DNA of 64,000 bases, taken from the sequence record PQ438048.1, one strand, 5' to 3'. The notes beneath the pieces are model-generated. The model made no database searches and was not told where the DNA came from. It saw only the letters and a program-made list of their open reading frames with translations. Of this stretch, positions 15,518-17,542 are shown one piece after another. The stretch is from Escherichia phage MirsaeidiM_Esher1. Numbering within the stretch: position 1 is the first letter of the stretch; the number at the start of each line of letters is the position of its first letter. The translations under genes and the position numbers were made by a program.

Positions 15518-17542
15518 TTATCGTGTTACAACAACCATGTCCACGATATCACCCACACCAGGATACGTTAATTGCAAAATTGTTACTGCGTTAGCAGTAG
15601 TTGCTATTTCTGTATCATTTAGTGCTCCATAAGACGCATCTAGTGTAACCGTGTGTCCCGTTGTATCTTGAATCAAATAAATCATTGCTGAAAACGCTTT
15701 AGGTTTTGTAGAGCCAGTGACACCAGGCCATGCTCCAACTGTCAGAGCGTCAGTTACTGTAACAACATACATATTGGAAGTTCCAGAAGGAGTCCAAGAT
15801 GCTCCAGAGTTGGCAGTAGTTGTTTCAAGTTCCATGAAACCTGCTGTAACTTTAGTTGGTGTTATAGCTTCCGTAGGATCTGATCCTGATATTTCGATCC
15901 AGTTTCCATCAGAACGACCATACGTCAAGCCGTCTTGAGGGGCTTCTGGTATACTAGGAAGAGTTCCTATAAGCGTCCACGTAGAAGAATCTGTTTTCTT
16001 AAACACTGCTCCAGTGGTAGTATTGAAGGCGTAATCATTGATAACACCATCTCCTGCGACTGGATTAGTTGTTGCTACAAACCACTGTGCGCCGTCCTTA
16101 CCGTTGGTCCCATCAGTACCGTTGGTTCCGTTTGTTCCAGGATCACCCTTATCTCCTTTATCCCCTTTTTCACCTTTGTCGCCTTTAATACTTCCCATGT
16201 CAACAAAAGATGCGGAATTGGTGTCTTGATCGTAGGTATAGATGTAAAGATTACTAGTGTCTTCAGTTAAGTAAGCATCACCATAGTTATTGTAAACAGG
16301 GAGAGCTTCACTGTTCGGAACATGACCTTTAGCTGTAATTGATGTTCCTCCAAGACTGCCAACATTCATCCATTCCGTAGCATCTTGGACCCAAACATAC
16401 AAATCATTATTAATTTTATATGCATCACCTACTTCTCCAGTCGGAGGAAGTTCAGCTTCGCTGTTCAGAACCCCGATAATCTCTAAGCCTGATCCTGTTG
16501 CACCAACTGGTCCTTGTGGACCTAATTCACCTTGTGGACCTTGCTCTCCTTGATCACCCTTGTCTCCTTTTGGACCTTTAAGCGAGGCAATGAAATCTAC
16601 TTCTGTCCCTTCATTACCAGCATCCAGCCAACTTTGATATGCAGATTTCCCTTCATCTCCATCTGTTCCATCTAGACCGTCTTTACCTGCCTCACCTTGT
16701 GGACCTTGAGGACCAACAATATTACCCATGTTGACCCAAGCTGTCCCATTGGAGACATAAAGATTACCATTGATAGAATAAGCTTGGCTTACGTTTTCAG
16801 AGTTAGGTTGTGGTAAGTTACTTGTAGAAGGCAAATCCCCACGATAATCAAAACCGTTGGCGTTAACACCAGGTGCTCCCTGTGGCCCTGTAGGACCAAC
16901 ATCGCCTTTATCACCTTTTATAGAGGTAAGAAAATCATAAACAGATCCTGTATTACCATCTGCCAACCATACCTCGTAAGCTGATTTACCTTCTGGCCCA
17001 AGAGAAGAAATAAGTTTCCAAACAGAACCATCCCAAGCGTAGATTACATCACCTACGATATAACCATCCCCTGCAACGTTACCTGTAGATGGTAGTTCAC
17101 TAGTGCTTGCTAATGATCCTTTAATATTAAGTTGAGCACCAGTGTCCCCTTTCAAAGAAGCAAGCCATTGTGCTTCTGTTCCAACAAAACCATTATCAAG
17201 TGCGATCTGATAAGCCGATTTACCAGCTTCAGGTATTGTTTCCGACAGATCATCAATCTGTTGCTGCATTGCCGTAAACTTGTCATTGATAATTGCTATA
17301 TCATCGGCGGTCCCAACACTTTGCCATGCAAGGGAAGAAATACCACCTGTGGTGGCTGGCGTAGAGTTTGCTGGAACTACTTTAGGAAAAGTTCCTTTCC
17401 ATTGGTAATAATTCCCTTCTGCTGCTAACAGCAAAACTTCACGGGAATTACGTAATGTAAAACCTGCCTCAAAGCTGCGACGTTTTCGATAAGTAGCTTC
17501 TACCAGATCGGCTATCGCACTATTAGGTCTTGTTAAATTCAT
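15518..17542 (-). CDS. tail fiber protein with collagen-like Gly-X-Y repeats
   Basis: Multiple G-X-Y runs, e.g. GPQGPQGEAGKDGLDGTDGDEGK and GDKGEKGDKGDKGDPGTNGTNGTDGTNGKDG. Confidence 0.7.
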   Translation of the reverse strand: MNLTRPNSAIADLVEATYRKRRSFEAGFTLRNSREVLLLAAEGNYYQWKGTFPKVVPANSTPATTGGISSLAWQSVGTADDIAIINDKFTAMQQQIDDLSETIPEAGKSAYQIALDNGFVGTEAQWLASLKGDTGAQLNIKGSLASTSELPSTGNVAGDGYIVGDVIYAWDGSVWKLISSLGPEGKSAYEVWLADGNTGSVYDFLTSIKGDKGDVGPTGPQGAPGVNANGFDYRGDLPSTSNLPQPNSENVSQAYSINGNLYVSNGTAWVNMGNIVGPQGPQGEAGKDGLDGTDGDEGKSAYQSWLDAGNEGTEVDFIASLKGPKGDKGDQGEQGPQGELGPQGPVGATGSGLEIIGVLNSEAELPPTGEVGDAYKINNDLYVWVQDATEWMNVGSLGGTSITAKGHVPNSEALPVYNNYGDAYLTEDTSNLYIYTYDQDTNSASFVDMGSIKGDKGEKGDKGDKGDPGTNGTNGTDGTNGKDGAQWFVATTNPVAGDGVINDYAFNTTTGAVFKKTDSSTWTLIGTLPSIPEAPQDGLTYGRSDGNWIEISGSDPTEAITPTKVTAGFMELETTTANSGASWTPSGTSNMYVVTVTDALTVGAWPGVTGSTKPKAFSAMIYLIQDTTGHTVTLDASYGALNDTEIATTANAVTILQLTYPGVGDIVDMVVVTR

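Follow-up and report, generated by a model that had tools for sequence, protein, structure and literature searches.

Four collagen-like Gly-X-Y blocks in a conserved tail fibre of Escherichia phage MirsaeidiM_Esher1

Results

The 64,000-nucleotide stretch of Escherichia phage MirsaeidiM_Esher1 analyzed here (PQ438048.1; referred to as the window) carries on its minus strand, at positions 15518..17542, a single open reading frame (ORF) for a collagen-like tail fibre. The frame starts with ATG and encodes 674 amino acids, the coordinates including the stop codon. A first-pass annotation had placed a 674-residue ORF at this position and labelled it a tail fiber; both statements hold, and the strand can be added. 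The profile of PHROG 15437 ('tail fiber protein') matches residues 1-674 with E = 0, the Pfam Collagen family (PF01391) reaches 46.2 bits, above its cut-off of 27.2, and the gene is syntenic with gene 151 of phage phi92.

Over its whole length, the 9 kb around the fibre gene shares 97.6-99.1% identity with phAPEC8-like E. coli myoviruses of ~150 kb, which belong to the genus Phapecoctavirus in the subfamily Stephanstirmvirinae (e.g., ESCO37, UP17, phAPEC8, Schickermooser). Going by this nucleotide identity, the window is Phapecoctavirus DNA. The fibre gene alone is 99.9% identical to that of Mt1B1_P17 and ESCO37. The collagen-like fibre is already known and annotated in public records and thus counts for little as a discovery: GenBank product names include 'putative tail fiber protein' and 'tail spike protein', the P3322 record has 'collagen triple helix repeat protein' and the BME3 record 'lateral tail fiber protein with type I collagen domain'. 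Orthologues were found at 58-99% identity and 100% coverage, and phi92 gene 151 is matched in tblastn; judged from homology and gene order, the protein is the syntenic orthologue of phi92 gp151. For the proposed genus Wecvirus a 681-residue tail fibre named TfpM2 has been described (PMC12695924), to which the 681-residue orthologues found here, 77-80% identical to the fibre, probably correspond. Identity amounts to 61-63% with the phi92 type, 77-86% with the nearest orthologues outside Phapecoctavirus (those of TfpM2 size included) and 98-99.9% within Phapecoctavirus, where the proteins differ by 4-9 substitutions per 674 residues. Because of this strong conservation within the genus, the protein is unlikely to be a host-range-variable fibre.

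The collagen-like character resides in four uninterrupted Gly-X-Y runs, detected by a regular-expression scan for at least three consecutive triplets. Block 1 (aa 210-227, 16862..16915, minus strand, as are all further features of the gene) has 6 triplets, GDK GDV GPT GPQ GAP GVN, block 2 (aa 277-300, 16643..16714) has 8, block 3 (aa 323-352, 16487..16576) has 10 and block 4 (aa 454-486, 16085..16183) has 11, in the order GDK GEK GDK GDK GDP GTN GTN GTD GTN GKD GAQ, giving 35 triplets in total. Besides these, only two mini-runs of two triplets occur, GDTGAQ (aa 132-137) and GPEGKS (aa 182-187). The first-pass annotation, which counted five or more runs, each of 8 to about 11 triplets, thus overstated both the number and the lower length of the runs. 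Their occurrence is far beyond chance: when the protein was shuffled 2000 times, the longest run stayed at 3 triplets or fewer in 84% of the shuffles, reached at least 6 in only 7 of them and never exceeded 7. No run of at least five triplets is found in any other ORF of the window, all frames considered.

The blocks are embedded in a modular protein, in which the order of modules and triplets is A1, 2 triplets, B1, 2 triplets, A2, 6, B2, 8, A3, 10, B3, B4, 11, B5. At the N-terminus, residues 12-77 (17312..17509) form an anchor domain of the Tail_spike_N type (PF18668), followed by a single long helix in the AlphaFold2 (AF2) secondary structure (aa 81-102, 17237..17302). This helix is probably a trimeric coiled-coil neck. 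Internal repeat alignment, supported by AF2, defines three A modules of ~25 residues with the consensus GKSAYxxWLxxGNxGTxxDFxxSLKG, each predicted as two short helices: A1 (GKSAYQIALDNGFVGTEAQWLASLK; aa 107-131, 17150..17224), a helix-turn-helix unit with helices at 110-116 and 123-130 that runs into the mini-run GDTGAQ, A2 (aa 185-209, 16916..16990) and A3 (aa 298-322, 16577..16651), whose start overlaps the last triplet of block 2. The same alignment yields four or five B modules, each 45-55 residues long and with the consensus LP..G..GDAY.....LY.W.G..W...G, each given by AF2 as a beta meander with a predicted local distance difference test score (pLDDT) of 85-91. These are B1 (aa 138-181, 17000..17131), a small module whose strands have pLDDT 85-88 and which carries the conserved motif LP...GDxY...LYxW.G..W...G, B2 (aa 228-276, 16715..16861), B3 (aa 353-399, 16346..16486), B4 (aa 400-453, 16184..16345) and the divergent B5 (aa 487-529, 15956..16084).

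B5 leads into a putative foldon-like trimerisation hairpin (SIPEAPQDGLTYGRSDGNWIEIS; aa 530-552, 15887..15955), found by BLASTP, by PDB profile search and in the AF2 model. Thirteen of 22 residues are identical to the foldon of T4 fibritin (BLASTP), the profile search matches fibritin foldon chains at E 7e-4 to 2e-3, and AF2 places hairpin strands at 541-544/547-550 within the segment. For the C-terminal distal domain (aa 570-674, 15521..15835), a beta sandwich is predicted. Its homologues include the C-terminal part of the phiTE fibre protein 9cuy_g (E 6e-16), and rV5-like lateral fibres share ~51% identity with it at their C-termini; the matching part of the phiTE fibre was left out of the experimental model (PMC11972413). 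At E values up to 10, Pfam returns only PF18668, PF01391 and a weak NPV_P10 match for the whole protein, with no beta-helix family among them, and AF2 predicts only small modules and the beta sandwich. Since the anchor domain is present without a right-handed beta-helix body, the protein is a fibre and not a tailspike. In the AF2 monomer, pLDDT drops below 50 in the Gly-X-Y blocks and both mini-runs as well as in residues 1-15 and the linker 554-570, and every non-collagen module is modelled with confidence.

Conservation was evaluated across 12 orthologues of 58-86% identity. Glycine is invariant at 35 of 35 positions, against a mean identity of 67% at X and Y, and the lengths of blocks 2-4 are always multiples of three residues. 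From this alignment we conclude that the Gly-X-Y pattern is under selection. The fibre contains ten KGD/KGE motifs, a type of motif that stabilises triple helices without hydroxyproline. Position X is occupied by Pro in 23% and by Asp/Glu in 37% of the triplets, position Y by Lys in 20%, Gln in 23% and Pro in 6%, in agreement with the 'Viruses' row in Table 4 of Ghosh et al. (2012; PMC3368898). With the rise of 2.88 Å per residue quoted there, the four blocks would measure ~5.2, 6.9, 8.6 and 9.5 nm (~30 nm in total) if triple-helical, one triplet corresponding to ~0.86 nm.

The proposal that the coding DNA is itself repetitive proved right in a weak sense. Tandem Repeats Finder reports imperfect 9-bp arrays in the fibre gene (66-91% matches, scores 34-60), two of them in block 4 (scores 34 and 50), and there is no exact tandem repeat of at least 12 nt inside any of the four blocks. 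The longest exact repeat in the gene, 17 nt shared between blocks 2 and 3, exceeds the maximum of 14 in 200 codon shuffles. Identical adjacent triplets are written in different codons, e.g., GDK as GGCGACAAA / GGGGATAAA / GGAGATAAG, and because synonymous codons are scrambled in this way between neighbours, slippage is disfavoured. The gene has no homopolymer of at least 7 (A/T) or at least 6 (C/G), no dinucleotide run and no 4-8-nt unit repeated more than twice in tandem.

Repeat-length variation, as suggested in the first-pass annotation, exists between lineages in whole triplets and is nearly absent among close relatives, so that the anticipated comparison of isolates largely speaks against rapid change. 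Within the phAPEC8 clade, 57 of the 60 listed GenBank/RefSeq records align collinearly, without any net insertion or deletion. In the 90% protein cluster, all 13 listed full-length members besides the query (not counting P0121, which is the window protein) have 674 residues and the counts 6/8/10/11. ASO2A lacks one GGAACCAAC (GTN) unit and iGC_PHA_EC001 two GDK units, both in block 4, the sole site of in-frame indels seen among close relatives. In the phi92-like cluster, 2 of the 15 listed members carry one extra block 4 triplet. Between lineages, we found 6/8/10/11 (window), 6/8/10/9, 6/8/10/10, 6/8/10/13 (681-residue orthologues), 6/6/9/6 (phi92 type), 6/5/9/11, 6/9/9/8, 6/10/9/4 and 6/11/9/3. 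Block 1 counts six triplets in every orthologue examined, block 3 ranges over 8-10, block 2 over 5-11, with 20 in a single metagenomic contig, and block 4, the most length-variable, over 3-13. Taken together, these sequences support a whole-triplet length variation that is real but slow, a lineage character rather than a population-level switch. The further suggestion of phase variation finds no basis in the gene: the periodic unit of 9 bp preserves the reading frame, which argues against on/off switching, and no frameshift-prone repeat is present.

Across 14 orthologues, phylogenetically non-independent and without correction for this, the triplet number of block 4 tends to fall as that of block 2 rises (Spearman -0.59, nominal p 0.026), which may be a sampling effect. 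A metagenome scan for orthologues delivered only about six usable relatives, too few for a proper test of this relation; a separate scan of IMG/VR returned one close relative and many distant modular fibres.

Three irregularities of other kinds were observed in related genomes. In SKA64, the third exception among the 60 listed records, a 76-bp tandem duplication of module A1 at nucleotide 394 of the gene (window ~17149) leaves only a 549-residue remnant annotated; this reflects either a null allele or a fault in the assembly. Since the duplication breaks the frame, is located outside the Gly-X-Y blocks and is possibly an artefact, it was rejected as a case of repeat-number variation. In the record of vB_EcoM_EP57 (OR544956), 486 bp (aa 319-480) are deleted in frame without homology at the junction, leaving a 512-residue fibre. 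This deletion is likely an assembly artefact, and was rejected as a natural loss of whole modules given that the genes on both sides are shortened as well and the record comprises only 130.7 kb. Finally, a mosaic patch at aa 318-411 (window 16310-16591), comprising block 3 and B3, distinguishes a subset of Phapecoctaviruses that are ~99% identical elsewhere. In phage ukendt the patch has 63% protein identity, the same length and still 10 triplets, and anhysbys, nieznany and tuntematon show a two-piece, 92%-covered megablast pattern like that of ukendt. A donor was not found among the orthologues sampled.

The fibre gene is located near the end of a baseplate and fibre operon on the minus strand. 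Directly after its stop codon lies a terminator-like hairpin (15496..15515, minus strand), at a place where a terminator is annotated in Schickermooser and ASO2A. Upstream, a colanic-acid-degrading tailspike of 1017 residues is encoded (17604..20657, minus strand), in which a Tail_spike_N domain of the same type as the anchor of the fibre is internal (aa 302-361); the ~300 residues N-terminal to this domain match other tail-fibre PHROGs. Downstream follows the last gene of the late operon (12801..15476, minus strand), whose product, a tail protein of 891 residues, combines an RCC1-like beta-propeller region with a Big_2 domain. Its Wecvirus counterpart is TfpM1, a protein reportedly missing from phi92-like phages (PMC12695924). 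The order lipoprotein, colanidase, fibre is annotated in Schickermooser as well as in phi92, where the lipoprotein gene and the colanidase gene (gp150) precede gene 151. A promoter scan gave no enrichment over shuffles. The sign of the GC skew flips at window ~12000 and ~56000; near ~12.8 kb, late structural genes on the minus strand and replication genes on the plus strand converge according to the annotation, in line with the first flip, and the one near ~56 kb would likewise be tied to gene orientation.

Genomes nearly identical to window positions 12000-21000 (95-99.6%) have been deposited under Acinetobacter (ABPW7), Campylobacter (B15) and Klebsiella (ZCKP1). Given their closeness to E. 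coli phages, these host labels look doubtful.

Discussion

In this study, we propose that the phi92 gp151 orthologue of MirsaeidiM_Esher1 is likely a homotrimeric lateral fibre in which the collagen-like blocks serve as stiff spacers, with a length that evolves slowly by triplets. Central to this proposal is the interpretation of the four blocks as short collagen-type triple helices, which is well supported by the invariance of glycine, the viral-type composition of X and Y and the presence of a putative trimeriser directly after the last block. Moreover, related prophage fibre proteins with Gly-X-Y domains form triple helices according to circular dichroism (CD) and electron microscopy (PMC3368898).

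According to the model, the Tail_spike_N domain would dock the fibre to the baseplate or to the fibre network, and the helix of residues 81-102 would make the neck. The four Gly-X-Y blocks would then act as the stiff spacers of a segmented rod, with the helical A and the beta B modules between them probably serving as local clamps for trimerisation and registration. From the C-terminal side, the foldon-like hairpin after block 4 may nucleate or lock the trimer, and the conserved beta domain would constitute the distal end. Changes in length by whole triplets (9 bp) may arise through rare slippage or unequal recombination between the imperfect repeats and would be fixed slowly, shifting the length of the fibre in steps of ~0.86 nm per lineage.

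Several points weigh against this model. The triple helix and the trimer have been inferred for this protein, and blocks of 6-11 triplets without hydroxyproline would be only marginally stable on their own. Fibritin_C (PF07921) does not appear in the Pfam scan of the fibre at E values up to 10; longer relatives are recorded as having it. Profile searches of the PDB with the A and B modules gave no significant match, PhiKZ gp184 being the best with E 0.05, and since no solved structure is significantly related to them by sequence, we can only infer their role as clamps. In the 2026 cryo-electron microscopy study of phi92, a predicted gp151 model could not be fitted into fibre II and the function of gp151 was called uncharacterised (PMC13450770), so that the position proposed here in the virion is presumptive. 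The BASEL study likewise describes the assignment of genes to lateral fibres as unclear in these phages (PMC8594841).

The closest points of reference are phi92 gp151, the phAPEC8 fibre and Wecvirus TfpM2, which share full-length homology, the module architecture, a first block of six triplets and the lipoprotein-colanidase-fibre order. The phi92 type differs by its 6/6/9/6 blocks, versus 6/8/10/11 in the window and 6/8/10/13 in the Wecvirus-sized proteins, and by a downstream gene that encodes a 202-residue tail protein instead of the 891-residue RCC1/Big_2 protein. A further parallel is offered by EPclA-D of enterohaemorrhagic E. coli prophages (PMC3368898). These are also phage side-tail-fibre proteins with Gly-X-Y domains; they are trimeric, with trimerisation domains flanking the collagen domains, whose lengths vary between copies by multiples of three residues, and X is often Pro or Asp/Glu and Y often Lys or Gln. 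Whole-triplet length variation in collagen-like phage fibres has thus been described before (Ghosh et al., 2012; PMC3368898). However, EPcl proteins contain one or two long collagen domains (27-322 residues), whereas the fibre has four short blocks set among A and B modules. The EPcl domains PfN, PCoil, PfC and Pf2 (PF08400, PF06820, PF03406) are not found in the fibre by Pfam at E values up to 10, and there is no sequence homology beyond the collagen repeats.

At the level of single elements, further likenesses emerge. The hairpin resembles the T4 fibritin foldon, also used in collagen-foldon chimeras (e.g., PDB 1nay), in being a ~22-residue hairpin (IPEAPxDGxxYxRxDGxW) located C-terminal to a trimeric rod. 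Yet, the fibritin rod is a coiled coil with the foldon as the C-terminus of the protein, whereas here the rod is collagen-like and the hairpin internal, followed by the distal domain of ~105 residues. The N-terminal anchor domain (PF18668) is shared with the tailspikes CBA120 TSP1/3/4 and G7C gp63.1; unlike these, the fibre has no beta-helix enzymatic body, and collagen-like blocks and small modules take its place. Repeat-number polymorphism that changes filament length is known for the bacterial collagen-like surface proteins Scl1/Scl2, Lcl and BclA. The proteins of Streptococcus pyogenes (Scl1/Scl2), Legionella (Lcl) and Bacillus (BclA) likewise have Gly-X-Y regions without hydroxyproline, but the fibre lacks an LPXTG anchor and shares no globular domain with such adhesins. 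Its NCBIfam scores against Scl1, Scl2 and Lcl (62, 48 and 35 bits versus cut-offs of 400, 500 and 325) are sub-threshold low-complexity matches.

An extended version of the model would regard gp151-type fibres as natural 'segmented collagens', in which each triple helix has its own mini-clamp (the A helix-turn-helix, a B module folded in the manner of the collagen XV/XVIII trimerisation domain, and a foldon) and the lengths of blocks 2 and 4 are traded off for reach, with phi92 fibre II as a possible identity. We regard this combination as rather unlikely.

Among the alternatives, it seems very unlikely that the blocks are flexible glycine-rich linkers between folded modules whose periodicity is incidental low complexity. 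The shortness of the blocks, the scarcity of Pro at Y and the pLDDT below 50 in all four would agree with it, although the low scores are no argument against a triple helix, since a monomer model cannot form one. A flexible linker would hold neither glycine at every third residue (35/35) nor a strict regime of whole-triplet indels, and the viral collagen composition, the PF01391 score above cut-off, the foldon-like trimeriser after the last block and the triple-helical state of the related prophage proteins all speak for a collagen.

The second alternative concerns the site of attachment. The beta modules or the knob of the fibre show moderate fold similarity to the capsid spike gp52 of phage Pa223 (PDB 9ny6), and the phi92 study reports the same likeness for gp151 (PMC13450770). 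One could imagine a head fibre in which the collagen segments hold the knob off the capsid. This has a very low probability in our view: the N-terminal domain is of the type found in tailspikes that attach to the baseplate (CBA120 TSP1/3/4, G7C gp63.1) and in the neighbouring colanidase, the gene is located at the end of the baseplate and tail-fibre operon, and the likeness lies in the beta modules or knob and not in the capsid-attachment segment. Pa223 gp52, in turn, has no collagen-like blocks and is bound to the capsid via an N-terminal arm that is asymmetric; at the sequence level no similarity to the fibre is detectable.

A contingency locus, where frequent mutation of the blocks would yield fibres of mixed length or on/off expression and so diversify adsorption, could draw on the 9-bp arrays, the two isolates short of one or two block 4 units, the extra triplet in 2 of 15 listed phi92-like cluster members and the 3-13 span of block 4, but is highly improbable in view of the near-constant triplet numbers in the listed close relatives (57/60 and 13/13), the scrambled codons with no exact tandem of at least 12 nt, a unit that cannot shift the frame, the lack of homopolymers and short-unit repeats, and a sole frameshift (SKA64, 76 bp) that lies outside the blocks and is maybe an assembly artefact.

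In summary, our preferred model remains a trimeric lateral fibre with collagen-like spacers. Nearly the same gene, with up to 99.9% identity, is present in dozens of deposited phage genomes. The protein represents a well-defined natural scaffold, consisting of an anchor, a segmented collagen, a foldon-like hairpin and a distal domain, in which lineages would differ by length steps of ~0.86 nm. It would presumably have a place in the multivalent apparatus by which phi92- and phAPEC8-like therapeutic phages adsorb.

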